Part shown: positions 152-21,436 of the stretch, one piece after another | Numbering within the stretch: position 1 is the first letter of the stretch | How the letters are laid out: the number at the start of each line of letters is the position of its first letter | From: an uncultured Alphaproteobacteria bacterium | Lineage (GTDB): Bacteria > Pseudomonadota > Alphaproteobacteria > Micavibrionales > Micavibrionaceae | Direction of reading: 5' to 3' | NCBI GenBank assembly: GCA_963974945.1 | Contig: CAXBFT010000001.1 | Location: 1 to 40,293 of the forward strand | DNA length: 40,293 bases | The notes under the pieces: generated by a model | Databases searched by the model: none | Told to the model about the DNA's origin: nothing | Seen by the model: the letters and a program-made list of their open reading frames with translations, nothing else | Program-made: the position numbers and the translations under genes

Positions 152-1873
152 ATGACTTACACAAAACTACCAATCACGAAAATTCAGGTTTCGGATGCAA
201 ACCCGCGCAAAGCCTTTGATGATGATTCAATTATTGGCTTGGCACAATCTATTAAAACTGACGGATTGCTTCAAAACCTGATTGTCGGAAAAGCCAAGGG
301 CAAAAAGAAATTACACCCTATTATCTGCGGTGAACGCCGTTTTCGGGCTATCAGCCTTTTGGTTGAAAATGGCGATTTGCCGAAAGATTACGAGGTTACT
401 GTTGAAATTAAAGACGACCTCGATGCCGATACGGCTTTGCGAATTGCCACAATGGAAAACATCCAAAGGCAAGACCTTACACCATTGGAGGAAGCACAAG
501 CGCTAACAAAACTGGTTCAGGACGGTGAAAAACTTGATGATATTGTCGCTCAAACAGGATTAAGCGCACATACAGTCAGACGTCGCCTTGTTCTCATGCA
601 GTTAAGTGAGACAGTCAAAGAATGTCTTGAGACAGGTGAAATTACCCTTTCACAGCCAGAAGCATTGAGTGTTGGCACATTTGAGGAGCAGGAACGCTGT
701 CTCAATATGGCTAAATCAGGTTATTGGGATGCCGAAGATATTAAAGACCGTATTCTGGGCGATCTTCCTACCCTCTCTATGGCTATTTTTGAGCGTGAGC
801 TTTACACAGGTGAGTATACAACCGACCTTTTAGGCGAGGATGATAACACCTATTTCAATGATGCAGAGCAATTCTTTGATTTGCAAAAGCAAGCGGCGGA
901 AGAACTAGCAGAATCCTATCGTGAGAAAGCCGATTGGGTGGAATTTGTTGAGAGCTATTTCAGTGCTTGGCAGTATGGCCGCGCCGAAGAAGGTGAGACA
1001 GGAGGCGTTATTGTTTCGTTATCGGCAAGCGGTGCTGTTGAAGTCCATGAAGGGCTTATCAAAACCAAGGCTGATGAAGGTACAGCAAATAGCCTTAAAG
1101 TGAAGCCTAAAGCCACTTACCCTACTCCGCTACGCCGTTATATGGCCATGCATAAAAGTATCGCGGTTCAATCGGCTTTGATTGAAAACCCAAGGGTTGC
1201 GAAACAGCTTGCTGTCGCAAACAAGCTATATCGTTTCAAAAACCATGATTGTCTGTCCTATTTCGAGCAGGAAGAGACAACCTCCCCTGCCCTCGCAATT
1301 ATCAATGAACAGGCAAAGGCTTTATTGGCGCATCTCGGCCATGACTCCGAAGACGCTACATGGCGCGATTTGGGTTATCTTTTCAACTATGACCTAGAAG
1401 ATGCCTATAAAGCTGTCAAAGACTTATCGGATGATGTTTTAGAAAGCCTTTTGGTGACACTGGATGCCTTGGAATTCGGGCAATTATTCTGTGATCAGCT
1501 TGATACTTATGAAGGCAGCATCTTCAATCAGGTTGCCCAGGATTTGCGTGTTGATATGCGGAATTACTGGCGACCAGATGAAGCCTTTTTGAAACGCCGT
1601 AACAAGGTGCAATTACAGCAGATTGTTACCGAGGCAGGGTGCTTTCAGAAATTCGGCAATGTTGCAGGATATAAGAAAAAAGAACTTGTGACCTCAATGA
1701 GCAAACATTTTCAGCACGTTCTTACACTTGAAAGCCCCAGTGAAGACGAATTGAAAGCAACATTCTGGATTCCAGAAGCTATGGCTTTCCCTGCGATTGA
1801 CCCTGATGTGAAGCAGGTCGAGCAGGATGAAACCTTGGACGATACAGCCGAGGATTTCAAAGAGGCCGCTTAA
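152..1873 (+). CDS. ParB-like nuclease (ParB/Srx N-terminal) domain protein; conjugative-element type, not the partition ParB
   Basis: 573-aa ORF. The N-terminus has ParB-box-like motifs (KIQVSDANPRKAFDD, GLLQNLIV, ICGERRFRAI). RBS AAAGGAAAAAAC lies before the ATG. A separate ParA plus small partner occurs at 4.9-6.0 kb. Confidence 0.8.
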   Translation: MTYTKLPITKIQVSDANPRKAFDDDSIIGLAQSIKTDGLLQNLIVGKAKGKKKLHPIICGERRFRAISLLVENGDLPKDYEVTVEIKDDLDADTALRIATMENIQRQDLTPLEEAQALTKLVQDGEKLDDIVAQTGLSAHTVRRRLVLMQLSETVKECLETGEITLSQPEALSVGTFEEQERCLNMAKSGYWDAEDIKDRILGDLPTLSMAIFERELYTGEYTTDLLGEDDNTYFNDAEQFFDLQKQAAEELAESYREKADWVEFVESYFSAWQYGRAEEGETGGVIVSLSASGAVEVHEGLIKTKADEGTANSLKVKPKATYPTPLRRYMAMHKSIAVQSALIENPRVAKQLAVANKLYRFKNHDCLSYFEQEETTSPALAIINEQAKALLAHLGHDSEDATWRDLGYLFNYDLEDAYKAVKDLSDDVLESLLVTLDALEFGQLFCDQLDTYEGSIFNQVAQDLRVDMRNYWRPDEAFLKRRNKVQLQQIVTEAGCFQKFGNVAGYKKKELVTSMSKHFQHVLTLESPSEDELKATFWIPEAMAFPAIDPDVKQVEQDETLDDTAEDFKEAA

Positions 1874-2589: not shown

Positions 2590-2791
2590 TCTTGGCTGTA
2601 TCCGTCAAGACCTCCCTTCGGGCCGCTAAAGCGCACAAAAACGGTATCCCCACCTTTCCGCGTCTTCGACTTGTGCAAGGTGGGTGATCCCCCTCCGTTT
2701 TTGTGGGTCGTGACCGCTCCAGCCGCTTCCAAAGCCGTTTCACGGCACTTCTAGGAAAGAAGTGCAACACACATTTTAAGGAGAAAAGAAG
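2590..2791 (+). repeat. Structured leader element, copy B
   Basis: The 50-nt core (2645-2694) is closed by perfectly complementary arms CACAAAAACGG (2634-2644) and CCGTTTTTGTG (2695-2705). An inner stem pairs CCCACCTT (2649-2656) with AAGGTGGG (2677-2684). Downstream is a GCCG/CGGC hairpin (2734-2746) and the shared box at 2752-2779. Confidence 0.75.
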
Positions 2792-3664
2792 ATGAAACGC
2801 ACCGATATTTACCAATCTGTTACTGACACAATCATTGAAGCTCTGGAACAAGGCTTATCAGGGGATTTTGAATTGCCTTGGCATGGCTGTTCGATTGTTC
2901 CCCAAAATGCCCGAACTGGAAATTATTATCATGGCATCAATGTGCCATTACTTTGGGCGCACCAGATGAAAAGCGCCTATTCAAGCGGAACATGGGCGAC
3001 TTATAAACAATGGCAGGACATGGGCGCACAGGTCAAAAAGGGCGAGAAAGGCCGCCAGATTGTTTTTTGGAAATCTATTGAAGTCGAGCCAACACAAGAT
3101 AATGAACAGCGCGAACAAGTTATGTTTGCCAAATATTCAACTGTCTTTAATGCCGATCAGGTGGACGGCTTCACCCTACCCCAAGATGATTTTGAACCAA
3201 ACGATATTCAGGCTATTTCAGCCGCAGATCACTTGATTGACGCATCAGGCGCAGATATTCGTTTTGATGAACGCCGCGCCTATTACAGCGTATTAGAGGA
3301 CTTTATCAACCTGCCCAGCCCTGAATTTTTCAAGGATACGTGCGGCTCTACAGCTACGCAGAATTACTACAGCACGGCATTTCACGAGCTTGTCCACTGG
3401 ACAGGAGCGCAGAAACGCCTGAACCGTGAGCAGAAGCATAAATTTGCTTCAAAAGACTATGCTTTCGAGGAATTGGTCGCAGAACTTGGCGCCGCCATGC
3501 TTTGTGCATCTACAGGCGTAGAGTCAAGCACCAGAGAAGACCACGCCATTTATATACAAAACTGGCTGAAAGCCTTGAAGGACGACAAGAAGTTTATCTT
3601 TTCGGCCAGCTCACAGGCACAAAAAGCCGCTGATTATCTCTTTTCTTTCACCAATCAAGATTAA
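2792..3664 (+). CDS. ardC: ArdC-type antirestriction protein (N-terminal ssDNA-binding domain plus C-terminal HExxH metalloprotease)
   Basis: 290 aa. The N-terminus (ITDTIIEALEQG, PW, NARTGNYYHGINVPLLW) is typical of ArdC/DUF1738. The C-terminus has FHELVHWTG (HExxH). Confidence 0.9.
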   Translation: MKRTDIYQSVTDTIIEALEQGLSGDFELPWHGCSIVPQNARTGNYYHGINVPLLWAHQMKSAYSSGTWATYKQWQDMGAQVKKGEKGRQIVFWKSIEVEPTQDNEQREQVMFAKYSTVFNADQVDGFTLPQDDFEPNDIQAISAADHLIDASGADIRFDERRAYYSVLEDFINLPSPEFFKDTCGSTATQNYYSTAFHELVHWTGAQKRLNREQKHKFASKDYAFEELVAELGAAMLCASTGVESSTREDHAIYIQNWLKALKDDKKFIFSASSQAQKAADYLFSFTNQD

Positions 3665-3926: not shown

Positions 3927-4352
3927 ATGCAACAAGCACAAACACTTACATGGGATGAAACTGAGATCGCAAACGCCCGCGCCGCCGAATTCTTGGCCTC
4001 CGAAATTGCTGAAACCGAAGAAGAAGCCTTCTCTATGGCAATATCGGATACGCAAGTCATAGAATGGGAATTCGAAGATTTTAAGGAACAGCTTAAAACC
4101 ATTCTTGACGATATTTCGCCCGAAGGCTTTTTCTATGTAGAAGGCCGGAATATGGGCTGGAGACGATTATCAGGCCATGCGGAGATAAAAGCAGATAGTG
4201 CAGAATCCTATATTAAAAAAGCCTTCCCTAAAACATCGGAATGGACGTTTCGAGGCGTTTACACCCCTTCCAAAAAGTCTTTGGATTATGCGCTTTATCA
4301 CCATGACGCGCCTACTGGAGAGTTTTATACTGTCATTGCAAATTCGGCATAA
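3927..4352 (+). CDS. Hypothetical protein (141 aa, acidic N-terminus)
   Basis: ORF with RBS AAAGGAA. I recognise no family. Its last 130 nt are part of the 272-bp tandem duplication. Confidence 0.55.
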   Translation: MQQAQTLTWDETEIANARAAEFLASEIAETEEEAFSMAISDTQVIEWEFEDFKEQLKTILDDISPEGFFYVEGRNMGWRRLSGHAEIKADSAESYIKKAFPKTSEWTFRGVYTPSKKSLDYALYHHDAPTGEFYTVIANSA

Positions 4353-4766
4353 GGCGTGAAAAGGAGTAAGTAGGGTTTTCTTTACCTTTGCATATATAAA
4401 AGAGTAAGTACGGAAGTAAAGATTTAGCGAAAATAACACAACGGTAAACCCCTACTTACACTTGTTGGTATTTCACTAAGACGGTAAAACCATACTTCCC
4501 TAAAACATCGGAATGGACGTTTTGAGGCGTTTACACCCCTTCCAAAAAGTCTTTGGATTATGCGCTTTATCACCATGACGCGCCTACTGGAGAGTTTTAT
4601 ACTGTCATTGCAAATTCGGCATAAGGCGTGAAAAGGAGTAAGTAGGGTTTTCTTTACCTTTGCATATATAAAAGAGTAAGTACGGAAGTAAAGATTTAGC
4701 GAAAATAACACAACGGTAAACCCCTACTTACACTTGTTGGTATTTCACTAAGACGGTAAAACCATG
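4223..4766. repeat. Tandem duplication, 2 x 272 bp
   Basis: 4223-4494 and 4495-4766 are identical except C4251 versus T4523 and the last base. The unit comprises the 3' end of the 3927 CDS plus the downstream iteron-bearing spacer. Confidence 0.95.
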
Positions 4767-4887
4767 CTTCTCTAAATCGCTAGAATGGTACTTTACGAAG
4801 ATGGTAAGTCACTATATACTCTAAATGGTAAGTCACTATCTCTTCACGAGAACACCTGCCGACTTACTATCAAGAATAAGTCACTAC
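4366..4887. promoter_or_regulatory. Iteron array, putative partition centromere/operator upstream of parA
   Basis: GTAAGTA or its reverse complement occurs at 4366, 4404, 4453(rc), 4638, 4676 and 4725(rc). ATGGTAAGTCACTAT occurs twice (4801-4815, 4825-4839; 24-bp period). GACTTAC is at 4861 (rc) and ATAAGTCACTAC at 4876-4887. GGTAAA motifs are interspersed. Confidence 0.5.
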
Positions 4888-6159: not shown

Positions 6160-6379
6160 GAGGCCGCTTCGGCCCGATTATCAAGACCTTCGCTGACGCT
6201 CACCTTCGGCTGCCTTGCCGGTATCCCCACCTTTCCGCGTCTTCGACTTGTGCAAGGCGGGTGATCCCCCTCCGGCAAGGCCGGGTCATGACAATCTCCT
6301 CCCGCTTCAAGCGACAGATTCCTGTCGCCTCGAAAAAAGTATGTTTCGAGGCGCAATTTAAAAGGAAAAGGAGTTCGCT
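6160..6379 (+). repeat. Structured leader element, copy C
   Basis: The 50-nt core (6222-6271) differs from copy B at one position. It is closed by GCCTTGCCGG (6212-6221) and CCGGCAAGGC (6272-6281), a different sequence from the copy B stem at the same position. Downstream hairpins are GCGACAG/CTGTCGC (6311-6328) and CTCGAAA/TTTCGAG (6329-6350). Confidence 0.75.
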
Positions 6380-6781
6380 ATGACAGACCAACAAACGCAA
6401 TCACTTAACGGCAATCAACGAAAAACGCTGCGCGAGCAGGATTTGTCCAATTTTTACGGCACAGAAGTCTGGTACAGACATCCCGCCTTTAGAACCTATC
6501 TATATACCGAAGGCGTTCAGTATGTTGCAGAACATGGCGAAGCTTATTGGCTTTTGGATAAGATTTTTGCGTGTCAGGCCTGTGTCCCAAAACTATCAGG
6601 TGAAGATTTTTGCAGTTGGGAATTGAAAAAAGACGCAGAAGGGCAGGGGGCAAAGCTTATTTGCACAGATGGCAATTACAACGAGCTATATTCTGAAAGC
6701 ATTCTCTACACTGATTTTCCGCTTGCCAGCATCAAGTTCTATTGTGTGAACAATGTCTTGTTACTCCCCACAGAATATTAA
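6380..6781 (+). CDS. Small conserved conjugative-element protein (resembles the family I recall as DUF6876; unverified)
   Basis: 133 aa with motifs FYGTEVWYRH and YTEGVQYVAEHGEAYWLLDKI. RBS AAAGGAG. Confidence 0.6.
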   Translation: MTDQQTQSLNGNQRKTLREQDLSNFYGTEVWYRHPAFRTYLYTEGVQYVAEHGEAYWLLDKIFACQACVPKLSGEDFCSWELKKDAEGQGAKLICTDGNYNELYSESILYTDFPLASIKFYCVNNVLLLPTEY

Positions 6782-6795
6782 GGGGAGGGCAGGAT

Positions 6796-7737
6796 ATGAC
6801 ACAGCTTGATTATTCAAAATTCAAAACAGAGATAAACCTGACCCAGTATGCCGCGCATCTAGGCTATGAGATAGACCGTAAGAAAAGCACACGCTCATCC
6901 ATAGCCATGCGAAAAGACAGCGATAAAGTAATTATTTCAAGGCGCGGCAATCTTTGGGTTTATTTTTCGGTCACAGACGATAGCGACAACGGCACTATTA
7001 TCGACTTTGCCGAGAAGCGCACTCATAAAAGCATTGGTGAGATTGGGCGTGAACTGCAAAACTGGATAGGGGGTGGTGTTTCGCTCCCCGATGCAATAAG
7101 CTATGTGCGAGAGGTTGCCCCTCAAGAATATGACCCCGCACGTATTGCTGGAATTTTCAAATCTTTAAAACCCGTCTATAAACACCGTTATTTGGCCAGT
7201 AGGGGGCTTACAGATGCCCTTTTGACAGATAAACGGTTTGTAGGGCGCGTTTTTACAGACCGCTATCAGAACGCTGCATTTCCGCATTTTAAGGATGGTC
7301 AGGTTTGTGGCCTTGAGTTAAAAAACCATGACAAAGCCCTGTTTGTCAGAGGAAGCGAAAAAACTCTTTGGCGATCATATGTTTTCAAGGATGACAATAC
7401 GCTGATTTTGGCAGAAGCCGTCATAGATTCTTTAAGTTATCATGCGCTATATCGTAGAGAAAAAGCTGTCTATGCCGCTACAGGCGGCGGGTTATCGCCA
7501 GAGCAGGGGGAAATTATTACGGCTTTTATCCGCGACTTTGACGCTCTGGAGCATATCATCATCATTCCCGACCATGACCAAGGCGGCGATAAGTTTGAAA
7601 AGCGCATCCGTGAAGCCGTCGAGTTATCAGGCTTTGACGGATTGTGTGAAACGCACAGGCCATGCCTAGAAGGGCAGGACTGGAACGATGTCTATAAGGA
7701 CACGCTCGAAAAAACTGGAAAAACTATACAGATATGA
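6796..7737 (+). CDS. DUF3991/Toprim domain protein
   Basis: A Toprim glutamate is in LILAEAVIDSLSY and a DxD motif is in IIIPDHDQGGDKF. I place the start at 6796 (RBS GGGGAGGG) rather than 6742, which overlaps the previous CDS. Confidence 0.8.
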   Translation: MTQLDYSKFKTEINLTQYAAHLGYEIDRKKSTRSSIAMRKDSDKVIISRRGNLWVYFSVTDDSDNGTIIDFAEKRTHKSIGEIGRELQNWIGGGVSLPDAISYVREVAPQEYDPARIAGIFKSLKPVYKHRYLASRGLTDALLTDKRFVGRVFTDRYQNAAFPHFKDGQVCGLELKNHDKALFVRGSEKTLWRSYVFKDDNTLILAEAVIDSLSYHALYRREKAVYAATGGGLSPEQGEIITAFIRDFDALEHIIIIPDHDQGGDKFEKRIREAVELSGFDGLCETHRPCLEGQDWNDVYKDTLEKTGKTIQI

Positions 7738-7786
7738 TACAATAATTGTATTATTTATGCTTTAAAATTGTTTTATGGAGGTAAAA

Positions 7787-8047
7787 ATGCCCAATATTGA
7801 TTTAGGTGATCCTTATGAATCCTACGTCAAAGGTTTAATTGGATCAGGATTATACAGCACTTATGCCGAAGTGGTTAAGGATGCTTTACGCCTTCACATG
7901 AATAATGAAACACCTTCAAAACAAATGGCTTTTATTCATAGCGCTATTGTGGAAGGGGAGGCTGATATTCAAGCAGGCCGAACCAAAAAATATTCGCCCA
8001 AGATGCTGGATAGTATGACAGAGGACGTTTTGAAAGAAGATGTCTGA
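7787..8047 (+). CDS. parD: ParD-family type II antitoxin
   Basis: YSTYAEVVKDALRLH is the typical ParD/COG3609 motif. It overlaps the toxin gene by 8 nt. RBS GGAGG lies before 7787. Confidence 0.8.
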   Translation: MPNIDLGDPYESYVKGLIGSGLYSTYAEVVKDALRLHMNNETPSKQMAFIHSAIVEGEADIQAGRTKKYSPKMLDSMTEDVLKEDV

Positions 8048-8348
8048 TAACTACCAAATCCAATTTTCTGCGCGCGCAGAAAAAGATTTCAAATCTATTC
8101 AGCGATACACGCTCAAGACTTATGGTGAAAAGCAGGTCTGGATTTATACAGGGATGCTGAAAGAAGCTTTACGAAAACTCGAAGAAAATCCGAAATTATA
8201 TGGTCATGTGCGCCCGGATATTCCCCAAATCTATCGCGCTTACAAAGTCGGCGAACACAGTCTGATTTATCGTATCGAAGACCAAACTGTCTATTTGATT
8301 GCGATATTACATGGCAGCATGGACTTTTCCTCTCAACTCAAAACCTAG
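8040..8348 (+). CDS. parE: RelE/ParE-family type II toxin
   Basis: 102 aa with a ParE-like pattern (FSARAEKDFKSI, YRIEDQTVYLIAILHGSMD). It is coupled to the upstream antitoxin. Confidence 0.8.
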   Translation: MSDNYQIQFSARAEKDFKSIQRYTLKTYGEKQVWIYTGMLKEALRKLEENPKLYGHVRPDIPQIYRAYKVGEHSLIYRIEDQTVYLIAILHGSMDFSSQLKT

Positions 8349-8611
8349 ATTTTCCATTTTCCAATAATACTGACGATTTCCTTTTTTGGGAATTATCGAC
8401 CAAACAGCCTTATGCCTTTCAAGATTGGGCAATTTAACTGACCTGCCTTCGCCTATGCTTCAAGAATAAATTTCCCCTTTTCGCATTCGCTCAAATTCCT
8501 CGCGGTGACAAATTTATTCTGTGACGCGTCGAAGCCGGCCAGTGAATTTTATGCCATCGTAAAAGGGCAATATGGTGTTGCTCTAGTGATAAACAACAAA
8601 AGGAAAATACA

Positions 8612-8917
8612 ATGTCAATTATAGCGAATATGAAAAAACAAGAGAATGGAAGTTTTGAAGGAAAACTGAAAACAGCAACCTTGAATCTTCATCTCAAATT
8701 ACAGCCCATCGGTGATGCTGAGGCCAATGATAACAAGCCTGATTTCAGAGCCAAAATCGGAAGCTTCGAAGCAGGGGCAGGGTGGAATAAGATTAGCGAT
8801 AATCAAAATCCATATATCTCCGTTCAGATTGATGCGCCGGAATTTCCAAATCCGATTTACGCCAATCTGGTTCAAAAAGACGACCAGTATATTTTGATCT
8901 GGTCCCGCCAAAACTAA
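8612..8917 (+). CDS. DUF736 domain protein
   Basis: Shows the characteristic DUF736 layout: GSFEGKLKTATLNL, KPDFRA, GAGWNK, YISVQIDAPEFPNPIYANL, ILIWSR. Confidence 0.85.
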   Translation: MSIIANMKKQENGSFEGKLKTATLNLHLKLQPIGDAEANDNKPDFRAKIGSFEAGAGWNKISDNQNPYISVQIDAPEFPNPIYANLVQKDDQYILIWSRQN

Positions 8918-8925
8918 CTCAAATT

Positions 8926-8951
8926 AGCCCCGCTAACTGCGGGGCTTTTTC
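8926..8951 (+). terminator. Rho-independent terminator
   Basis: AGCCCCGC (8926-8933), loop TAACT, GCGGGGCT (8939-8946), then TTTTT. Confidence 0.8.
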
Positions 8952-9236
8952 ATGTTCGAAATACGCTCTTGTCGGAAATGATGGGGGCGTTTTTTGTGCT
9001 TGTAATTTACAGCAATGCACAGCTTGGAGACAGGGTAAAGCGATAGCGGATAGGGCAGAGTTTGTATGAGATAGTGAAGAGGGGTTGTTAGATATAAGAT
9101 TAATATTAATACAAGATAAAAGATATAAATTATATTTATATGAACATACTGTTATTGTTGTATAATTTAGGCGTTAATAATGCTTGTTATAAGTTAAAAT
9201 AAGTTGTATAGTAAGAGGGCGTAAAATTGAGATTTT
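8952..9236. other. Putative oriT region (AT-rich tract upstream of the relaxase gene)
   Basis: This non-coding gap lies between the + strand array and the relaxase gene. Positions 9091-9150 contain only 8 G/C in 60 nt. It has short repeats (GATATAAGAT/AGATATAAAT, GTTGTATA twice) and an imperfect inverted repeat TGTGCTTG..CAATGCACA (8994-9020). No nic site was recognised. Confidence 0.35.
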
Positions 9237-11315
9237 ATGAGGGCTTGGGAAGCGAAGTTGATGTTTTTAGATCGGATCAGGGCTGAGAATTTTACGGGGA
9301 GCGATGGCGTTTCCCGGCCATTGATCGTGACCAGAGATAGCCCAAGAAAAGCGTTCTTCAAAAAGCTCAATCGTCATGGCGAAGTGAAGTCGGGACCGAA
9401 AAAGATTAAACGCAGATCAGGATTGATGCGCGGTAATTCATTTGCAGGTTTGGCATCGGCGCAGCGCGTTGTTGTGAAAATCAATCCGGTAAAGAATAAG
9501 ACCAAAGGTGTTGGATCGGGCGCCAATTCAGGCGGCCAAAATCTCTATCATCATATTCATTACATCAGCCGAAACAGGGCAGGGGAGGATGGTGAAAAAG
9601 CCATCCTGTTTGATGCTAAAAACGAGGGATTGGAGCGTCAAGATTTCTTTGAGTTATGCAAAAATGATCGTCACCATTTTCGGATGATACTCTCACCGGA
9701 GCGGGGTGATGAGATCGAAGATTTCAGAGGCTATGTTCGTGAGGTCATGAAGCGAGTCGAGGGTGATCTCAAGACCAAGCTCTCATGGGTGGCGGCTGTT
9801 CATTACGATACCGATGATGTCCATGCCCATGTGATCATTCGGGGCAAAGGTGCGCGCGGTGAGGATCTGGTGATGGCCCGCGATTATATCGCTTTTGGTA
9901 TTCGCGCAAGAGCGCAGGAGATTGCAACCGAGCTATTGGGTGAGCGCTCGATTGAAGATATTCAAAAGGGCTTGGAGAAGGAAGTGGACGCGCTGCGGGT
10001 CACTTCTTTAGACCGCTTTATTGAAAAGCACGTAGGCGCAGATCAGGTGGTCGATGTCCGCAAAGAAAACAATTTCGGCAAATCAGCGCATTATGAGTCT
10101 GTGCTTAAAGGGCGGTTGCGCTATCTGGCCTCAAGCGGTATGGCTGTCGAAAACCCTCCAGGCGTCTATACACTGAAAGAGGGTTATAGAGATGTCTTGG
10201 CGAGCATTGCCACGCGCAATGATGTCATTAAAAAGCTGTATGAGCGTGTAGAGGGCTTGGATGATCTGGAAGTCTATTCTCTAAAAGCCGGAGAAGGGCA
10301 AGTCATTGAGGGGCGCGTTTTGGATAAGGGGCCAGCCGATGAGCTAACAGATAAGAAATACATCGTTGTTGAATCCTTATCAGGCGGCAAGCATTACGTT
10401 CCGGTAGGTGAAGCCTTTAATTATGATGAGGTAAATAAGCGGGGTTTAGTAAGGGTTCGTCCTTTTGATCAATCAACCGGCAAGGCTGATCATAATATTG
10501 CGATGATTGCAGGGCAGAATGAGGGCATTTACGATATTGAGAAACACCGAGCCTATATATCAGCCGAGCAGTCTTATATTGATGAAGATGTACGAGAGCC
10601 TTACTTACAATCCCATATCAAACGGATTGAGACATTAGTTGCAAATGAGGCTGTCACAGAATTAGGGCAGGGGCGTTATCAAATCCCTGATGATGTGATC
10701 GAAAAGGGCAAAGAGATATCTGCCAAAATCAATGCGCGTGAGAAAAAGCGGTTCTATCCAAAGCTTGATATTCTCTCATCCCATGCGCCGGAAGATATGG
10801 TCGATGCGAAAAAGAAGACCTGGCTTGATAAAGAGCTTTATAAGCGAGGGCGCGGGGATCGCAGTATTACAGACCAATCTCTGGAAACTGCCCTTCAAAA
10901 ACGTCAGCAATGGCTTGTCGATAATAAGTTCGCAATGATCCAGTCTAATGGTGAGTTTGCCATGAAGAAATCAGTGATGCGTGATCTCAGCGTTATGGAA
11001 GTGCATGAAGAGGGTAAATTCTTGGCCACAAAAGCCGGTCTCACTTTTAACGATCATAAAGTCTCATCCGATCAAGCTTATACCTATCTTGGCTATACCG
11101 AGCTTGAGACAGGAAAATGGGCGGTTGCGATGCGCGGAAAAGAGTTGCAAATGGCGCGGATTGACAAAGCCCCCGACCTTGAAAAAGGGCAAAAGGTTCA
11201 ATTTAGCGAGATCGAGCGCGGACTATTCGAAATGCGCGCCGTCGAAAAACAGAAACAGCTAGAACAGCAGCAATCCTCACGCGGGCGTGATGATGATAAT
11301 GAAATGGAGCTATAA
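9237..11315 (+). CDS. Relaxase/mobilization nuclease with a DUF3363-like C-terminus (MOBP/VirD2-like)
   Basis: His-triad motif HYDTDDVHAHVIIRG. DRHHFRMILSPE and DLVMARDYIAFGIRARAQE match my recollection of DUF3363 relaxases. The start codon is uncertain (9237 or the ATG at 9267). Confidence 0.85.
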   Translation: MRAWEAKLMFLDRIRAENFTGSDGVSRPLIVTRDSPRKAFFKKLNRHGEVKSGPKKIKRRSGLMRGNSFAGLASAQRVVVKINPVKNKTKGVGSGANSGGQNLYHHIHYISRNRAGEDGEKAILFDAKNEGLERQDFFELCKNDRHHFRMILSPERGDEIEDFRGYVREVMKRVEGDLKTKLSWVAAVHYDTDDVHAHVIIRGKGARGEDLVMARDYIAFGIRARAQEIATELLGERSIEDIQKGLEKEVDALRVTSLDRFIEKHVGADQVVDVRKENNFGKSAHYESVLKGRLRYLASSGMAVENPPGVYTLKEGYRDVLASIATRNDVIKKLYERVEGLDDLEVYSLKAGEGQVIEGRVLDKGPADELTDKKYIVVESLSGGKHYVPVGEAFNYDEVNKRGLVRVRPFDQSTGKADHNIAMIAGQNEGIYDIEKHRAYISAEQSYIDEDVREPYLQSHIKRIETLVANEAVTELGQGRYQIPDDVIEKGKEISAKINAREKKRFYPKLDILSSHAPEDMVDAKKKTWLDKELYKRGRGDRSITDQSLETALQKRQQWLVDNKFAMIQSNGEFAMKKSVMRDLSVMEVHEEGKFLATKAGLTFNDHKVSSDQAYTYLGYTELETGKWAVAMRGKELQMARIDKAPDLEKGQKVQFSEIERGLFEMRAVEKQKQLEQQQSSRGRDDDNEMEL

Positions 11316-12180: not shown

Positions 12181-12489
12181 ATGGTATCACTTATAACGCC
12201 CGCAAAAGCACAAAAAAAGATCGCAGAACAAGCACGCGCGCGACGTTTACAAATGGAATTAACGCAGGAAGGTCTGGCGGAGCGCTCAGGTGTTGCATTG
12301 CCGACCCTTCGCAAGTTTGAACGCACGGGCGCTCTATCCCTGGAATCATTTCTTAAGCTTCACATGGTGCTTGGCGGATTGGAAGATATCCTTAAAGCTA
12401 CGCAAATTAAAGAAGAGAGCTATTCTTCCATCGATGATGTATTGAAGTCAGATAACGTACCTATCCGCAAGAGAGGGACACGCAAATGA
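12181..12489 (+). CDS. hipB: XRE-family HTH antitoxin (HipB-like)
   Basis: HTH LTQEGLAERSGVALPTLRKFERTG. It overlaps hipA by 4 nt. Confidence 0.8.
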   Translation: MVSLITPAKAQKKIAEQARARRLQMELTQEGLAERSGVALPTLRKFERTGALSLESFLKLHMVLGGLEDILKATQIKEESYSSIDDVLKSDNVPIRKRGTRK

Positions 12490-13730
12490 AGAACTATCTC
12501 TCTGCAACAGAAGTAAGGGTCGGCATTAATTTTGGCGAAGGTGTTCAAACTGTAGGCAGATTAGCTGTACGGGAGCACAAGATTTATTTTGAATATGATA
12601 GCGCCTTTATAAAAAGCGGCATAGAGATATCACCGCTACGCTTATCTTTAAGACCAGGTGTTCAAGGTTTTGATCATGATCTTTTTGAAGGCTTGCCCGG
12701 TGTATTTAACGATAGCTTGCCTGATGGTTGGGGACGGTTATTGTTTGATCGTTTTATAAGATCACAGGGAATATTGCCCTCAGATATAACACCGCTTGAT
12801 CGCTTGGCGCATGTGGGGTCACATGCTCTTGGCGCACTTGTGTTTGAACCTGATCACAGCGCAGATGATACACAAGGCGATATAAACCTTGATAACCTTG
12901 CCTCGCAAGCGCAAGAGGTTTTGGACGGAACGTCGGATGACGTATTGGCGGAACTCATAGCCTTAAACGGATCTTCAGCGGGAGCAAGGCCAAAAGCACT
13001 AATCGGTGTAAACGAGAAAAGGGATCATATCATTCATGGTCTACATGATTTACCCGCAGGTTATGCACCATGGATGGTTAAATTCCCGAATAGTCAAGAT
13101 GGGCTAGATGCCGGTGCAATCGAATTTGTATATGCATTGATGGCAAAAGAGGCTGGCATTACCATGCCTGATGTTCATCTTTTTCAAGCAGAGCGCGGCG
13201 CAGGTTATTTTGCGATTAAGCGCTTTGATCGTGATGGTGACAAACGATACCACATGCACACGGCTTGCGGATTGTTGCATTCAGATTTCCGCACACCTTC
13301 ATTGGATTACGAAGATTTAATTGCGCTCACTGGTATGCTGACTCGCGATGTGCGTGAGGTGGAAAAGCTATATCAGCTGGCCGTGTTTAACGTGTTAGCT
13401 CATAATCGCGATGATCATTCCAAAAATTTCAGTTATTTGATGGATAGCCAAGGGGGATGGAAACTTTCCCCTGCCTATGACCTCACATTCTCATCTGGCC
13501 CACGCGGCGAACAAAGCATGATGGTTATGGGTGAAGGTAAAAACCCTGATACAAGCCATCTGTTAAAGCTGGCAGATGAAGCGAAAATCAAAAAAGACCG
13601 TGCGCTTGAGATTATTGAGAGCACAAAATCCAGCTTGTCCAAATGGTCAGAACTTGCAAAGCAATATGGCGTTAATGATACAAACATTCAGCTGATACAA
13701 AGCAAAATATCGCAGGTGGCCGGCAAATAA
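12486..13730 (+). CDS. hipA: HipA-family serine/threonine kinase toxin
   Basis: 414 aa. Catalytic-loop motif HNRDDHSKNFS, a GSSAGARPK P-loop-like motif, and the N-terminal HipA coupling region. Confidence 0.9.
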   Translation: MKNYLSATEVRVGINFGEGVQTVGRLAVREHKIYFEYDSAFIKSGIEISPLRLSLRPGVQGFDHDLFEGLPGVFNDSLPDGWGRLLFDRFIRSQGILPSDITPLDRLAHVGSHALGALVFEPDHSADDTQGDINLDNLASQAQEVLDGTSDDVLAELIALNGSSAGARPKALIGVNEKRDHIIHGLHDLPAGYAPWMVKFPNSQDGLDAGAIEFVYALMAKEAGITMPDVHLFQAERGAGYFAIKRFDRDGDKRYHMHTACGLLHSDFRTPSLDYEDLIALTGMLTRDVREVEKLYQLAVFNVLAHNRDDHSKNFSYLMDSQGGWKLSPAYDLTFSSGPRGEQSMMVMGEGKNPDTSHLLKLADEAKIKKDRALEIIESTKSSLSKWSELAKQYGVNDTNIQLIQSKISQVAGK

Positions 13731-14163: not shown

Positions 14164-15978
14164 TTATTCGAGATCGTCGGACAATAAGTCCAATATTTCG
14201 TCTTTCGAATCTTCATCTTCATGATCAGGAATTGTATCAGAGACATTTTCCTGCTTTTTCGCAAACATATCGCTTTGATTAGGGTCTTTGGCTTTTTGCG
14301 CCTTTTTTTCTTCTTCGGTTGGAATATTAAATTTTGGAATATCATTTTCCATGATGTTCAATTTTGGCACAATCGGCGCAGGAACATCGCGGGATTTAAA
14401 ATTCTTATCGCTAAAATACTTAAGCTTATTAGCCTTTATGGGAGAGGAAGACTCCACCAATATAATTTGCTGATTATCTGGAAAGTCACGCATTTCATGT
14501 TTTTCGATCAGAGGCCGGCCACGCTGAGAGACATTATCCATGGGCGCCTCATAGCGCATGGATTTTTTCTTTGATCTTGAAGTGACTTCAACGGTCTGCT
14601 GGCCGCAGCTTTCAGAGACATATTGCGCCGTTGCTAGATCATTTGTCGCAAAAAATACCTGATGGGCGCAGCAAGACAGAATACCGTTCCGTTTTTCACG
14701 GCCATAAGTCACGTCAAGCCAATTTAGAGACTGCACCACTGCCATAACGCGCACATTATAACCAGCCAGAAGTGTGAAGGCAGTTGTCATCGAATCTATG
14801 CGGCCTAACATATGAAATTCATCGAGCAGCATTAAAACCTTGTGCGGTTCATCTTTGCCAGGCTCTTTCATGGAGAGCTTAGTGATGATTTGTTCAAAAA
14901 AGATGCGTAGCAAGGGCGTGAGTGTTTCAATCTGACCAGTTAGAACGCCAACATAAATTGAGAGTTTTTTACGGCGTAAATCCTCGATTTTAAAATCGGT
15001 CTTTGATGTGGCCGCATCAATAAGCGGGTTATCCCACAAGTTTAAGGCCTGATTGAGAGAAGATTTTACACCGGAGCGCTCTTTGGCGGCCTTGTTCGCA
15101 AAATTCATCAGAGATTTTTTTACTGTAGAAGTGAGTTCAGGGTGTGTTTGAACGATATGACGGCAGACATCGCCCAAATCGGCTTCCGTTCCCAAAAGCC
15201 TGTTAATCGCCCCTATTGTTGAAGGCATGGCATTATTATTCATCACATACAGCGCAAGACCGACAAAAAGGGCGCGGGCTTCGGAGGCCCATATCGGATC
15301 ACTTTTAGGTGGGTCTTGTATCAAGATTTTAGCAATGACCTGCAAATCACTGACGCATTGATGTGGGTCTTGGCTGACGGCATCGAGCGGATTATAGCGG
15401 TGCGAGAGGCCATGTTCATCCATTGGCGACCACATAAAGACATCGTGACCATGCTCTTTTCTAAAACCGGCAGTTTTTCTGTAGTTTTCATGCTTCACAT
15501 CAAAGCAAATGATAGAGCCAGGCCAGTTCAAAAGATTAGGAACGACAATGCCAACGCCTTTACCTGATCTGGTCGGTGCTACAATAATGCTGTGTGTGGG
15601 ATGATCGCTGATAAGGTACTGGTTTTTGAATTTTCCCAAGATCACGCCTGTTTTAGCAAAAAGCTTTGCTTTCGTGATTTCTCTTAAGCTTGCCCAGTGC
15701 GCTTTTCCGAAAATATCCTTACCCTTGAAGGCCGTGTCATAAATTTGACCTGCAATAAATATGAGCGCAAGGGCAGGGGCGCCAAAGGCGACAAACAGGC
15801 GTGACCCAGTTTGCTCGTCAATCTCATTTCCAAATGTAAGCCAGATGGAAAGAGGGTTTGCGAGTTCCAAAGGCTGTTTTGAGAGCAGGAAAAACATGAG
15901 TGATGCGGCATAGGAATAGAGAATAAGGCCGAAGATTCCGCCAAAGCCGTATATATATTTCATGTTTGTATCGCTCAT
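14164..15978 (-). CDS. virD4: Type IV coupling protein VirD4/TraG
   Basis: 604 aa with N-terminal TM segments, Walker A VAPTRSGKGVG and an acidic C-terminal tail. An ATGA overlap links it to virB11. Confidence 0.9.
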   Translation of the reverse strand: MSDTNMKYIYGFGGIFGLILYSYAASLMFFLLSKQPLELANPLSIWLTFGNEIDEQTGSRLFVAFGAPALALIFIAGQIYDTAFKGKDIFGKAHWASLREITKAKLFAKTGVILGKFKNQYLISDHPTHSIIVAPTRSGKGVGIVVPNLLNWPGSIICFDVKHENYRKTAGFRKEHGHDVFMWSPMDEHGLSHRYNPLDAVSQDPHQCVSDLQVIAKILIQDPPKSDPIWASEARALFVGLALYVMNNNAMPSTIGAINRLLGTEADLGDVCRHIVQTHPELTSTVKKSLMNFANKAAKERSGVKSSLNQALNLWDNPLIDAATSKTDFKIEDLRRKKLSIYVGVLTGQIETLTPLLRIFFEQIITKLSMKEPGKDEPHKVLMLLDEFHMLGRIDSMTTAFTLLAGYNVRVMAVVQSLNWLDVTYGREKRNGILSCCAHQVFFATNDLATAQYVSESCGQQTVEVTSRSKKKSMRYEAPMDNVSQRGRPLIEKHEMRDFPDNQQIILVESSSPIKANKLKYFSDKNFKSRDVPAPIVPKLNIMENDIPKFNIPTEEEKKAQKAKDPNQSDMFAKKQENVSDTIPDHEDEDSKDEILDLLSDDLE

Positions 15979-17027
15979 GAACCCCCCGGATACCAGATTT
16001 CAGAGATGATGCGCTTGCCCCCAATGCGTTTGAGTTGAATGACAACATCAATAATCGAGCTGATATAGGCCATGATCTGGTCATGGGTGAGGCCGAGATT
16101 GGCTTGCATCACCATCAAACAGATTTGTTCTAATGCCCCTTGCGGCGTATCGGCGTGAATTGTGGTAATTGACCCCGGATGGCCAGTATTTACAGCGCGA
16201 AGAAAGCTATAGGCTTCCTTACCGCGCAGCTCACCGAGCAAAATACGGTCTGGGCGAAAACGAAGACTGGCTTCTAATAAATCCTGAATGGTGACTTTGC
16301 TTTGCCCTTGATCCCCTTTGGATGCAAGAAGAGAGACATGATTTTTCTGGGGCGGCATGACTTCGGGCGTGTCTTCGATTGTGACTATGCGCTCATGCGG
16401 CTCAATCTCTTTTAAAATGGCGTTCAAAAGTGTGGTTTTTCCCGTCGATGTTCCTCCGGAGACAATGATATTTTTCTTTGCTCGAATGGCGGCAGAAATA
16501 AAGTCCTGGTATTCGCCTGCATCAAGATGGGATTGCAGGGTTTGATTAATGTCGGTTTTGCATGCACTACTTTCTTTTAAGCTCTCAAAAGCCCCCATTT
16601 CCCGATAATCATGAAGGCTTAAATCTCGCATGACTTGCTTTCTGATGGAAAGTGTGACGCCAAAACGAGAAACAGGCGGCGTTGCAAACTGAATACGCTC
16701 ACCGCTTGGAAGTGATGCCGATAATAAAGGTTTATTCGCAGCTATGGATTGATCGGTGTAATTGGCAACCAAACGGCCCAAACGCCATAAAATATCATCG
16801 GTGATGTCTTTGTTTTCGATGAACAGCATTTCAGGCTCACCGGCCTTTTCAATCCAAAGCTCCCCTGGTTTATTCACGCAAATCTCAGAAATATCGGGAT
16901 CATTCAGGTACTTCTCGAAAAGCCCCATATATTGTTTGAGATAAACGCCGGACTGCTCGGATTTTGCGCTATCTTTTTGCTCAAAAGATTGGTTGGCGGG
17001 TTTTACGGGTTTTTTGTGTGAACTCAT
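15975..17027 (-). CDS. virB11: VirB11 T4SS ATPase
   Basis: Walker A GGTSTGKTT and the His-box region TGHPGSITTIHA. I place the start at 17027 (MSSHKK), 10 nt after the virB10 stop, rather than the track start at 17123. Confidence 0.9.
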   Translation of the reverse strand: MSSHKKPVKPANQSFEQKDSAKSEQSGVYLKQYMGLFEKYLNDPDISEICVNKPGELWIEKAGEPEMLFIENKDITDDILWRLGRLVANYTDQSIAANKPLLSASLPSGERIQFATPPVSRFGVTLSIRKQVMRDLSLHDYREMGAFESLKESSACKTDINQTLQSHLDAGEYQDFISAAIRAKKNIIVSGGTSTGKTTLLNAILKEIEPHERIVTIEDTPEVMPPQKNHVSLLASKGDQGQSKVTIQDLLEASLRFRPDRILLGELRGKEAYSFLRAVNTGHPGSITTIHADTPQGALEQICLMVMQANLGLTHDQIMAYISSIIDVVIQLKRIGGKRIISEIWYPGGS

Positions 17028-17037
17028 CTCGCGCCTT

Positions 17038-18204
17038 TCAATGTTTCGGGATATTTCCAGCGACTTGCGAAAAATCCAAATCCTTGCCGACAAAGACCTT
17101 GATGCGGGCGCCTTGGTGAACATGCACCGTTGGCGGTATTCCTATTGAGTTATCAAGGGCGATTTCGGCTGATCTTGAAAAATCTGTGCCTGTATCAAGG
17201 GCAACAGTGGCCTGATCGTCATCATCTATGGCATTCACGCCAATCTGGATAGCACCATCAATAAGTGACAGAAGCACCGAAGAGCCAAAGCGTTCAAAGA
17301 AGTGCGTATCAACTTCCCCTGCCAAACCGCTGCGCCCTAAATCATCTGTGCCGTATGAGCCGATATTGATGCTCACACCGTCATTTCTGATAAGGCGGTT
17401 CCAGATCACAAAAACACGTGATTGGCCGCGAACAAGCCCTGAGCGATAACGCCCGATGAGCTTTGATCCTTTGGGAATGATAAGGTGAGAGCCATTAAAG
17501 GAATAGACATCTTCACTGACAATCGCACGCACCAATCCTGGAAGATCGCTTTGAATGGCCGTTTCTAATATTCCATCAATCAATGTGCCTTGTGTCACAA
17601 GCGTATCCAGATTTTGTAACTGTGAAGCCGTTGCTATTTCAACATCGCTATTCGCATATTGATTGGCAAAGGCGATATTAGGGTCTTGTTCACCGCCGCC
17701 AAGAAGTGATCCTTGCCCGCCTTGTGAAGTAGCCCCGCCCGCAACATTGCCTTGCGCTGAACCGCTGTTATCAAAGATTACTTGAGGGGAGCGTCTGCGC
17801 TCTTCCATGCGTTTCTTTTGTTCCCTCGCCAAACGCAAAGCTTCCTGTTGCATTTGCAGCTCGCGCTGCGCTTCTAACGGATCAAATAACTCACGTTCAT
17901 CAATCGGTGGAACAAGCTGTTCGAGCGGCACTTCTGCTTGTTCTTCAATTTCGATATAAGGGCCGGACGGGGTAGGCGTTCTAAACTCGATTTCTTCAGG
18001 TGTTGTCAGCTCACGCGGCGCGGATTGCTCCATACCATCCAAAGCGACAAAGATGATTGCGATAACGCCAACTGCCAGAAATGCGAAAATTCCAAATTTA
18101 GAGGCGTTTGAGCCTTGGGCTATGGTCGGAAATTCACGATCACCATCCAAAGTTCTTGGCTTAGGCTCCTCATCGAAGTTATCAGGCGGGGTTTGATCAT
18201 TCAT
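17038..18204 (-). CDS. virB10: VirB10/TrbI
   Basis: 388 aa with an N-terminal TM segment, a Pro/Glu-rich linker and a conserved C-terminal barrel region (IPKGSKLIGRY, VIWNRLIRNDGVSI). Confidence 0.9.
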   Translation of the reverse strand: MNDQTPPDNFDEEPKPRTLDGDREFPTIAQGSNASKFGIFAFLAVGVIAIIFVALDGMEQSAPRELTTPEEIEFRTPTPSGPYIEIEEQAEVPLEQLVPPIDERELFDPLEAQRELQMQQEALRLAREQKKRMEERRRSPQVIFDNSGSAQGNVAGGATSQGGQGSLLGGGEQDPNIAFANQYANSDVEIATASQLQNLDTLVTQGTLIDGILETAIQSDLPGLVRAIVSEDVYSFNGSHLIIPKGSKLIGRYRSGLVRGQSRVFVIWNRLIRNDGVSINIGSYGTDDLGRSGLAGEVDTHFFERFGSSVLLSLIDGAIQIGVNAIDDDDQATVALDTGTDFSRSAEIALDNSIGIPPTVHVHQGARIKVFVGKDLDFSQVAGNIPKH

Positions 18205-18216
18205 ATCATAATATCC

Positions 18217-19167
18217 TTACTCATTCAGGCTCGCTGTTTTTGGGCTGTCGAAATTGGAAAAGAGCTGCGCCAAAAGGCTTGGCTTTTCTTCTTTTTCAGC
18301 TTGAAGGGCGGCAATATCAGGTTTTTGAGAAGGAACGGGAACAGAAGCAACTTCTATTTCTTTGACCTCTTCCAGCTCTGCGATGGGTTCTGGTTCATAA
18401 GATGCCGGTTCAACTTGCGGGTAGGCATCATTCCAGATGCAAGTCGCTGTATCACCGTCTCTTAATGTGAATTGAGAGCCGACGCCGGAGACAACCAGAT
18501 ATTGACCTTGAAGATTGAAATTGACGAGGCGCTCATTACCGTTTTCATCAACACTAAAGACAGCAGGCATCACATCAAAATCTTCAAACTGGAAGTATGT
18601 GAAAACGCCATCATCAAAAGCGCGGATCGGGCGCAGGCGTTTTGATCCAGCATAGCTATAATCAAAATTTAAATCCGAGGCGCTGACGTTATCTAGCGGA
18701 TTAAAATGGGCTTGGGAGACACTGCCAATAAAGGCAAGCTCTTTGGCGGCTTCATCGGCGTAATGAAATTTTAGCCGGAAGGTTAAGTCCGAAGATCGAG
18801 GCGAATAGGCATCTCCAGCAGTTACCTCGAAGGTATAAATCCTTTTATCTGTAATGACCGTCATATTGGTTTCGGCATCTTCTTCCAAAGGCTTGATGAA
18901 CATGATATTGGGCTGCCCGGGCTTCATGACCTGCCACGCTTCGGTATCGCCTAAAGAAATGGTCTGAATGCGCTCTTTTTCCGAAAACTCAATCACCGTT
19001 GAATAGCCATAGTGTCCTCTTATCTGGTAGACATCATTTTCATGATAGGTGACGACTTTCACACGGGCGTCGGCGCTCGTTGGTCTTGGGTCTTTGCCTG
19101 CGAGGGCAGGGGATATGGATAGGCAGGAAATCAGGGCTGTTCCTAATAATAATTTTTTGAATGTCAT
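18217..19167 (-). CDS. virB9: VirB9
   Basis: 316 aa with a signal peptide. Its position and sequence pattern are VirB9/CagX-like. An ATGA overlap links it to virB8. Confidence 0.85.
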   Translation of the reverse strand: MTFKKLLLGTALISCLSISPALAGKDPRPTSADARVKVVTYHENDVYQIRGHYGYSTVIEFSEKERIQTISLGDTEAWQVMKPGQPNIMFIKPLEEDAETNMTVITDKRIYTFEVTAGDAYSPRSSDLTFRLKFHYADEAAKELAFIGSVSQAHFNPLDNVSASDLNFDYSYAGSKRLRPIRAFDDGVFTYFQFEDFDVMPAVFSVDENGNERLVNFNLQGQYLVVSGVGSQFTLRDGDTATCIWNDAYPQVEPASYEPEPIAELEEVKEIEVASVPVPSQKPDIAALQAEKEEKPSLLAQLFSNFDSPKTASLNE

Positions 19168-19841: not shown

Positions 19842-19844
19842 TTT

Positions 19845-21423: not shown

Positions 21424-21436
21424 GCGTCTTTTCTCC

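Follow-up and report, generated by a model that had tools for sequence, protein, structure and literature searches.

What is the repeated non-coding element that precedes three genes in a 40,293 nt stretch of DNA from an uncultured Alphaproteobacteria bacterium (Micavibrionaceae; GenBank assembly GCA_963974945.1, contig CAXBFT010000001.1, positions 1–40,293), and on which strand does it work? This whole stretch, referred to below as the window, is a conjugative plasmid or integrative element. Three same-strand copies of the repeat are present in it, named here A (1–59, cut by the window edge), B (2590–2791) and C (6160–6379). They lie upstream of a gene for a ParB-like protein, of ardC and of a DUF6876 gene, respectively.

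A branched structure conserved among alphaproteobacterial mobile elements

An initial annotation had described a 50 nt core at 2645–2694 and 6222–6271, with a single T/C difference between the two, and a third, edge-cut copy at 1–40. The coordinates and sequence of the core were correct, and the third copy was found to continue to position 59. A repeat finder run on the window returned a single three-copy family (1–59, 2655–2713 and 6232–6290). Further, a covariance model built from homologues (see below) matched the 40 kb at exactly these three positions, each time on the + strand (scores in Table 1), the next-best match reaching 12 bits (E = 0.7). The three-copy occurrence is not due to chance. 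The start codon of the following + strand gene was located 111, 97 and 108 nt past the end of the core in copies A, B and C, respectively, in agreement with the spacing of about 100–110 nt reported initially.

The core and its closing stem, as first described, are part of a larger element, a branched structure of about 200 nt. From the outside inwards, it comprises an outer stem, P1, formed by (G)TCAAGACC and GGGTCRTGA(C), one or two small hairpins on the 5′ side, and the closing stem, P2, which is variable in sequence. Inside P2, an asymmetric internal loop with T-N opposite (T)CCCCCT is followed by an inner stem, P3 (TCCCCACCTT with AAGGTGGG-T-GA), and a tiny terminal hairpin at the apex. 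The P2 arms CACAAAAACGG/CCGTTTTTGTG of copy B and GCCTTGCCGG/CCGGCAAGGC of copy C were, as claimed, each perfectly complementary, the two pairs being unrelated in sequence. The pairing proposed inside the core exists as well, and is longer than noted (ATCCCCACCTT with AAGGTGGGTGAT, including one bulged T). The GGGTC(A/G)TG segment, initially listed as a motif kept after the stem, is indeed present; since it pairs with the upstream (G)TCAAGACC (2604–2612 with 2706–2714, and 6176–6188 with 6283–6296), it is itself the 3′ arm of P1. Folding of 2590–2791 and 6160–6379 on both strands, as DNA or RNA, a check suggested by the initial annotation, gave the same branched structure from either strand, more stable than that of shuffled sequences. 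For copies B and C, the z values were −3.0 and −3.3 when the + strand was folded as RNA, and −4.9 and −4.1 when the − strand was folded as DNA.

A blastn search of PLSDB with the module matched only the core, in 22 plasmids, all of them alphaproteobacterial, at one to four places in each. A pattern scan of one genome per species identified at least 119 loci; nhmmer confirmed at least 140 copies in at least 104 loci, 89 of these copies being distinct, and the covariance model confirmed 105 copies in the first 100 loci. Among the matches listed, the hosts were Sphingomonadales, Rhodobacterales, Rhizobiales, Caulobacterales, Acetobacteraceae, Reyranella and Micavibrio, plus a few genome bins labelled otherwise, and the carriers were nearly all alphaproteobacterial plasmids or integrative elements. 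On the carrier plasmids, the relaxases are of the MOBP, MOBF or MOBQ families and the mating-pair systems of the T or F type. Near-identical relatives of the window were found in marine Micavibrio and Rhodospirillales genome bins. That otherwise unrelated backbones carry the element almost exclusively in Alphaproteobacteria argues for a host factor on which it depends. The initial annotation had assigned the element to no named Rfam family, and none was found: the whole window gave no match in Rfam 15 at the gathering threshold, a sensitive scan of 2500–2850 gave only noise (E > 1), and 13 loci with high-GC copies yielded only tRNA and group II intron matches. A blastn search in ‘distant’ mode detected no homologue in 5,426 complete Escherichia coli genomes with their plasmids. 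The literature, searched both by topic and with sequence strings, yielded no description of it either; the element is undescribed in Rfam and in searchable publications.

The initial annotation had claimed compensatory covariation on the basis of two copies and recommended its analysis in homologues. This was done with a MAFFT alignment of the 89 distinct copies, made without reference to a structure. The named structure was paired in 90.8% of the cells, versus 74.8% after shuffling, and contained 297 double-change cells versus 91 expected. Its covariation score was 0.402, versus 0.04–0.10 when the partners were slid by 1–3 columns, and none of 500 shuffles reached 0.402. In P2, with 90.9% of the cells paired, double changes were observed at eight of the ten pairs, and single pairs pass through four Watson–Crick types (for example, GC 37, AU 25, CG 14, UA 10, broken 3). 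P3 was less variable, partly because the search pattern fixed some of its bases. Pair 45–75 of this stem was CG in 62 copies, UA in 25 and broken in none; copies found only by the models, and not by the pattern, added further P3 compensation (CCCCGTTC/GAACGGG, and CCAACG/CGTTG in a divergent Roseovarius/Halocynthiibacter variant). The P1 arms vary by subfamily and yet remain complementary (CCGTCAAGACC/GGTCTTGACGG, GGGTTCAAGGCC/GCCGTGAACCC, CTGGCGCAAGGGCC/GCCC..TTGCGCCA, CTGCCGCAAGGGCT/GCCC..TTGCGGCA, TTGGCAAGGG/CCCTTGCCAA and GATTTAACAAGACC/GGGTCATGGTTAAATC), with a mean duplex energy of −14.9 kcal/mol versus −10.1 kcal/mol for shuffled arms. Conservation is highest at the P2/P3 junction (GG-T-N-TCCCC and GGGYGATCCCCCTCC), much of which was required by the search pattern; model-only matches showed small changes in it (GATTCCCC, GATACCCC). 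The folded structure is under strong selection, its three nested stems being backed by compensatory changes, so that what was claimed from two copies holds over the 89 distinct homologues. A G-quadruplex or i-motif formed by the G/C runs was set aside, as the covariation shows these runs to be base-paired.

The position of the element relative to genes is also conserved. A same-strand open reading frame (ORF) with a ribosome-binding site follows 121 of the 133 copies, its start being mostly 104–120 nt past GATCCCC (110–119 nt in 76 of the 121, and 96–126 nt in nearly all, with one Brevundimonas subgroup at about 160 nt). This spacing is kept across subfamilies despite their differing spacer sequences. 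The 84 distinct downstream products include ArdC (26), ParB_N (9), DUF3768 (8), DUF6876 (4) and DUF736 (2) proteins, in addition to DUF4942, DUF6915, LPD29/30, N6/N4 methylases and several unannotated proteins of 80–90 residues. In 29 of the 30 multi-copy loci, all copies are on one strand. Genome-wide scatter, as for repetitive extragenic palindromic (REP) sequences or miniature inverted-repeat transposable elements (MITEs), had been named initially as evidence that would speak against a function. No such scatter was seen: there are one to four copies per locus, and the fixed distance to a same-strand gene, the shared strand and the presence of early genes of conjugative elements downstream indicate that the element is not REP- or MITE-like. 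Covariation and conserved position strongly support the initial proposal of a folded nucleic acid with a function, located ahead of early or anti-restriction genes.

The strand that folds

In a stem that functions on one particular strand, G·T (or G·U) mismatches are tolerated, but A·C mismatches are not. When the + strand of the 89 copies was inspected, the mismatches in P2 and P3 were A·C or C·A in 69 cells and G·T or T·G in 12; counted once per 85%-identity cluster and pair, they were 41 and 12, respectively (binomial p = 8e-5). Since an A·C on the + strand is a G·T on the − strand, the selected fold is that of the − strand, complementary to the downstream mRNA. The apex points in the same direction. 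On the − strand, it reads exactly d(GCGNAGC) in 54 of the 89 copies (N being A in 15, C in 32, G in 4 and T in 3) and has the related form GTC-GAA-GAC in the window. On the + strand, the apical loop is not of the UNCG or GNRA type, C(UNCG)G being present there in nine of the 89 copies. With any N, GCGNAGC forms an extraordinarily stable DNA mini-hairpin, with a melting temperature of 70–76 °C, and the natural sites of this type (the primase site of phage G4, ssiA of RSF1010 and the N4 virion-polymerase promoters) are single-strand initiation sites (PMC13037366, a 2026 review by the discoverers of the motif). Mismatch asymmetry and the GCGNAGC apex thus indicate that the folding strand is the template strand of the downstream gene. 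A structured sense RNA leader, one of the two options considered in the initial annotation, is disfavoured, because A·C is much more frequent than G·T in the stems and the apex motif lies on the complementary strand. As a method, the balance between A·C and G·T mismatches in covarying stems can reveal the functional strand of a structured DNA element.

The small side hairpins (2614–2622, 6162–6174 and those of many homologues) very often read CTTCGG on the + strand, that is, CCGAAG on the − strand. Unlike the apex, they cannot discriminate between the strands, because CTTCGG corresponds both to the RNA C(UUCG)G tetraloop and to the DNA C-GAA-G mini-hairpin.

In plasmids F, RP4 and R388, the gene for the relaxase is the last to enter, and genes co-directional with it have the transferred strand as their template. 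The three copies in the window are co-directional with the relaxase gene, as are those of loci L002 (four copies), L003, L037, L093, L120, L123 (two copies), L124 and L126. In most loci where the arrangement is readable, the copies precede the relaxase gene or at least share its direction. By the rule of F, RP4 and R388, the folding strand would therefore be the transferred strand. The leading end of the window would then run from about position 9000 down through copies C, B and A, in this order, with the transfer origin presumably in the AT-rich gap at 8918–9236. The assignment to the transferred strand is kept as an inference, as the establishment genes of pLS20 can lie reversed.

Possible roles of the folded strand

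On a narrow balance of probability, the element represents a new alphaproteobacterial family of single-stranded DNA (ssDNA) initiation signals, similar to Frpo of plasmid F and located before early and anti-restriction genes. An ssDNA promoter on the transferred strand, the other option of the initial annotation, fits the strand evidence and the co-orientation with the relaxase gene; the lack of an ordinary σ70-type promoter in the module also speaks for it. The − strand, template of the genes that follow, would be the one entering the recipient in conjugation. While still single-stranded, each copy would fold into P1, P2 and P3, capped by the GNA mini-hairpin and with the AGGGGG bulge unpaired. 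The folded copy would be an entry site for the host RNA polymerase, the partner inferred here, and transcription would start in, or just beyond, the hairpin. The operons behind it (ArdC; ParB-like/methylase; DUF6876-primase-ParDE) would be transcribed before the complementary strand is made, and second-strand synthesis would remove the hairpin and turn the genes off. These transcripts may also act as primers for the complementary strand, a role demonstrated for Frpo.

In IncF and IncI plasmids, repeated promoters of the single-strand kind are found ahead of ssb, psiB, ardA, klcA and a methylase gene; promoters of the Frpo or single-strand initiation (ssi) type are active only until the second strand is made, also prime DNA synthesis and can stall it (PMC12672017; PMC11541004). 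Like the element described here, Frpo/ssi1–3 and the class 2–3 ssDNA promoters of F, ColIb-P9 and pESBL occur as several homologous copies before early or anti-defence operons; their place is in the leading region, as is presumed for the element. They further share with it a large stem-loop on the template strand (here deduced from the covarying stems, the mismatch asymmetry and GCGNAGC), a template that would be the incoming strand, and a possible dual role in transcription and priming. They differ in that there is no sequence similarity to the element, which was absent from the E. coli genomes and plasmids and matched only alphaproteobacterial plasmids in PLSDB. In addition, Frpo and the ssi promoters form one long stem, whereas the element is branched, has its host range in Alphaproteobacteria and conserves the internal loop of the P2/P3 junction and the GNA mini-hairpin rather than −35/−10 boxes.

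Several observations weigh against an ssDNA promoter on the transferred strand. Exceptions to the common orientation exist, one pMM1-type copy (loci L125, L026 and L119) and one of the two copies of L106 being opposed to the relaxase gene. The RP4-type nick motif ATCCTGY was absent from 8349–9236, and its counts in the window were at chance level. Although the − strand folded more stably in 80 of 88 copies, this comparison is confounded by base composition and is given little weight, because the + strand is C-rich and the difference is partly a by-product of this. Known single-strand promoters are described as rebuilding −35/−10 boxes. No −35/−10 pair was recognised in the modules, either in the linear sequence of both strands or, by inspection, in either arm of the fold, and none occupied a fixed place on either arm (the best mean match was 4.95 out of 12, and no copy reached 8 at a shared position). 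TTG is common in the P1 3′ arm, with no −10 partner found. Finally, the repeats that precede establishment operons in the pLS20 family act on double-stranded DNA (dsDNA) and RNA, the transferred strand being the non-template one (PMC8708921).

Three specific promoter types were considered and rejected. A σ32 heat-shock promoter was suggested by the resemblance of CTTGTGC-N12-CCCCCT to CTTGAAG-N12-CCCCAT of groE, but conservation of CTTG does not extend to the rhizobial, Brevundimonas and Roseovarius subfamilies. A σ70 promoter using TTGAC of the P1 3′ arm as its −35 box lacks a −10 box at a distance of 16–18 nt on either arm. The Caulobacter-type GCTANAWC matched at GCT only and failed across subfamilies. 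Recruitment of a polymerase or primase would most obviously involve the conserved internal loop and the GNA cap. It is possible, if doubtful, that they define a new type of initiation signal, in which the template arm exposes an unpaired AGGGGG across from an invariant A, with G-C pairs on either side and the GNA hairpin keeping it in place, and this loop recruits the alphaproteobacterial RNA polymerase (as an open-promoter mimic, like 6S RNA) or a transferred protein. Such a signal would provide class-specific early expression across unrelated backbones.

The same folding-strand evidence would apply if the element were a priming signal only, of the ssi or single-strand origin (sso) type, where a primase (host DnaG or the Toprim protein of the mobile element itself), or RNA polymerase making a short primer, starts the complementary strand with no gene expression. 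Primase sites (G4, RSF1010 ssiA) typically carry the GCGNAGC mini-hairpin, a Toprim/DUF3991 gene follows copy C and another is present in the L123 leading region, and ICEBs1 has an sso (PMC4595007). A priming signal, however, needs neither a fixed 104–120 nt to a start codon nor a place before the first gene of each operon, and no shared primase is seen in many carrier plasmids; this explanation is considered improbable. The RepB′ primase sites ssiA and ssiB of RSF1010 and the complementary-strand origin of G4 are, like the element, strand-specific folded DNA with an ultra-stable GAA/GNA mini-hairpin; they are, however, single hairpins of 40 nt within a replication origin, versus elements of about 200 nt before genes. 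The element locally resembles ssiA (CCTTTCC, a hairpin, then GTGTGCAG), but on the + strand, not on the folding strand. Homology to ssiA/ssiB was rejected, since the covariance model gave no match at either site, its best score over the IncQ origin (L127) being 7.4 bits (E = 0.57) elsewhere; the 40 nt ssiA sequence itself is 100% identical in IncQ plasmids. A Pfam scan of proteins of the window revealed no RepB′-type primase, only the Toprim protein. The sso of rolling-circle plasmids and of ICEBs1 resemble the element as orientation- and host-specific folded ssDNA read by the host RNA polymerase. They differ from it in having no link to a downstream gene and in their RS-B and CS-6 motifs, which the element lacks; CS-6 (TAGCGT; TAGCGW for the ssoA type) is absent from the apex of every copy in the window.

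The pLS20-family cassettes EGeRS1/EGeRS2 and conAn, which are conserved regulatory sequences recurring ahead of establishment operons with ardC among their genes, suggest another arrangement, in which a repressible ordinary promoter on dsDNA is combined with a structured leader RNA exerting antitermination or CCUCC-like translational control. The repetition of the element before such operons, the stability of the + strand RNA relative to shuffled sequences, the C(UUCG)G form of several side hairpins on that strand, and C-rich tracts (GAUCCCCCUCC and CCCCCGCU) resembling an anti-Shine–Dalgarno sequence are all consistent with it. EGeRS and conAn nevertheless rely on ordinary promoters and a processive antitermination RNA, with the transferred strand as non-template (PMC8708921), whereas the folding strand of the element is the template and no promoter consensus was recognised upstream of or within the module; this distinction is one of architecture, not of sequence comparison. 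The excess of stem mismatches favouring the other strand, the scarcity of C(UNCG)G at the + strand apex and the lack of an Rfam match make such a cassette unlikely too, although the C-rich tracts leave room for a second, RNA-level role. An antisense small RNA transcribed from the − strand would account for the folding strand and, through the shared core, could pair with the leaders of all copies and co-repress the early genes. It is rendered very unlikely by the lack of a promoter-like − strand site downstream of the element and of a terminator (the upstream GC hairpin is followed on the − strand by an A-run, not a U-run), and by GCGNAGC being a DNA-specific stability motif. Least credible is a site for a strand-specific DNA enzyme (a secondary site for an HUH nuclease or relaxase, or an attC-like recombination site) that marks gene cassettes. 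A one-strand hairpin adjoining a conserved unpaired run, a loose likeness to the RSF1010 nick region (GCGCCCTCCCC) and the fact that each copy travels with one operon agree with this idea. Against it, the element occurs with unrelated relaxase families and has no integron integrase nearby, its core, in contrast to attC, shows high conservation and precedes genes, and the flanking genes are a syntenic backbone rather than shuffled cassettes.

Promoters active only on the incoming strand explain how plasmid anti-defence genes are expressed within minutes of entry, and have so far been established only for enterobacterial IncF and IncI plasmids. If the element is an ssDNA initiation signal, this principle would extend to a whole class, including sphingomonad degradative plasmids, plasmids and integrative elements of Rhodobacterales and Rhizobiales, and marine Micavibrio-like elements. 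The comparative support for the family is unusually clear, and its architecture is unlike that of known promoters. The element would also serve as a ready marker of leading regions and transfer direction, points to candidate early or anti-defence genes (DUF3768, DUF6876, DUF4942 and the small proteins of 80–90 residues), and offers a compact sequence for testing with alphaproteobacterial RNA polymerase.

Genes and other features around the copies

The coordinates of the copies, their parts and the associated genes are collected in Table 1.

Table 1. Features of the three copies and of the genes behind them in the window. For the copies and their folded parts, − denotes the proposed folding strand.
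Feature	Position	Strand	Details
Copy A, cut by window edge	1–151	−	21.8 bits
Copy A, core, 3′ half	1–40	−	
Copy A, P2 3′ arm	41–51	−	CCGGCAAGTCC
Copy A, P1 3′ arm	52–60	−	GGGTCATGG
Copy A, 3′ of the arms			C-run/GCT motif, hairpin and ribosome-binding site, then ParB-like start codon at 152
ParB-like gene, first after copy A	152–1873	+	ParB_N and HTH_ParB (Pfam scan)
Copy B, whole module	2590–2791	−	ardC template strand; 81.9 bits (E = 8e-16)
Copy B, bounds			upstream stop codon 2587–2589; ardC start codon 2792
Copy B, P1 5′ arm	2604–2612	−	GTCAAGACC; pairs with 2706–2714 (GGTCGTGAC), one A·G mismatch
Copy B, P2 5′ arm	2634–2644	−	CACAAAAACGG; pairs with 2695–2705
Copy B, P3 5′ arm	2646–2656	−	ATCCCCACCTT; pairs with 2677–2688 (AAGGTGGGTGAT, bulged T)
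Copy B, apical mini-hairpin	2662–2670	−	GTCTTCGAC on +; GTC-GAA-GAC on −, GNA triloop closed by C-G
Copy B, conserved unpaired bulge between P3 and P2	2689–2694	−	CCCCCT on +, AGGGGG on −
Copy B, 3′ arms	2695–2714	−	P2 2695–2705 (CCGTTTTTGTG); P1 2706–2714 (GGTCGTGAC)
Copy B, hairpin-to-gene stretch	2715–2791	+	conserved CAGCCGCTTCC (C-run/GCT motif)
Copy B, hairpins in this stretch	2734–2746, 2745–2765	+	
Copy B, Shine–Dalgarno sequence	2778–2783	+	AAGGAG
ardC, first after copy B	2792–3664	+	ArdcN and zincin metallopeptidase
Copy C, whole module	6160–6379	−	86.9 bits (E = 7e-17); DUF6876 start codon 6380
Copy C, upstream hairpin	6162–6174		
Copy C, P1	6176–6188		pairs with 6283–6296
Copy C, P2	6212–6221		GCCTTGCCGG; pairs with 6272–6281 (CCGGCAAGGC)
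Copy C, P3	6223–6233		pairs with 6254–6265
Copy C, apical mini-hairpin	6239–6247		
Copy C, bulge	6266–6271		CCCCCT
Genes after copy C	6380–8348	+	DUF6876 6380–6781; Toprim/DUF3991, primase-like 6742–7737; ParD/ParE 7775–8348
Relaxase gene	9237–11315	+	MobA/VirD2 nuclease and DUF3363; downstream of all three copies

All genes between 152 and 13730 are on the + strand, while a VirB/Trb-type secretion system and a coupling protein are encoded on the − strand (14164–24588). The G+C content is about 45%. The ParB-like gene is directly followed by an ORF of 219 amino acids (1930–2589) with a partial match to N6 DNA methylase (profile positions 23–120 of 311), which looks like a truncated or split ParB-methylase arrangement. 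Between ardC and copy C there are, in this order, a small ORF, a tandem duplication of a 272 bp unit (4223–4776, 98–99% identity), a ParA/VirC1-like gene starting at 4825, just downstream of the duplication, and another small ORF. Each 272 bp unit, as well as the junction before parA, contains a promoter-like ATGACG/TTTACG-N17-TATACT sequence; the duplication may correspond to a duplicated parA promoter or centromere region. A DUF736 gene lies between ParD/ParE and the relaxase gene, and HipBA follows the latter, so that the relaxase gene is flanked by two toxin–antitoxin pairs on its own strand: ParD/ParE, on the presumed leading side, and HipB-like/HipA (12181–13730). An orphan hipB and other toxin–antitoxin genes have been described in anti-defence islands (Samuel et al., PMC11541004).

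Among the homologous loci, two small protein families with no Pfam match are repeatedly encoded by the first gene after the element in sphingomonads. One has 86 amino acids, starting with MTDIPLATILRINAAR, and the other 82, starting with MKIRIYRQTEQ; examples are found in L008, L030, L045 (L045:4365-), L077 (L077:5612–5857) and others, and both families may serve early or anti-defence functions of an unknown kind. A group II intron with a reverse-transcriptase/maturase gene splits the ardC gene located behind a copy of the element in two sphingomonad plasmids (L002:2385–5737 and L123:36586–40548), the Rfam Intron_gpII match being at L002:5284–5369. The pMM1-type Sphingobium copy (L125:20001–20055, present also in L026 and L119) lies just past the 3′ end of the relaxase operon, before an ORF of 87 amino acids. 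Finally, tRNA genes are located 2–3 kb from copies on chromosomal contigs of Shinella (L005:4908–4981) and Methylocella (L035:174–264), suggesting these copies to be near the ends of integrative elements inserted at tRNA genes.

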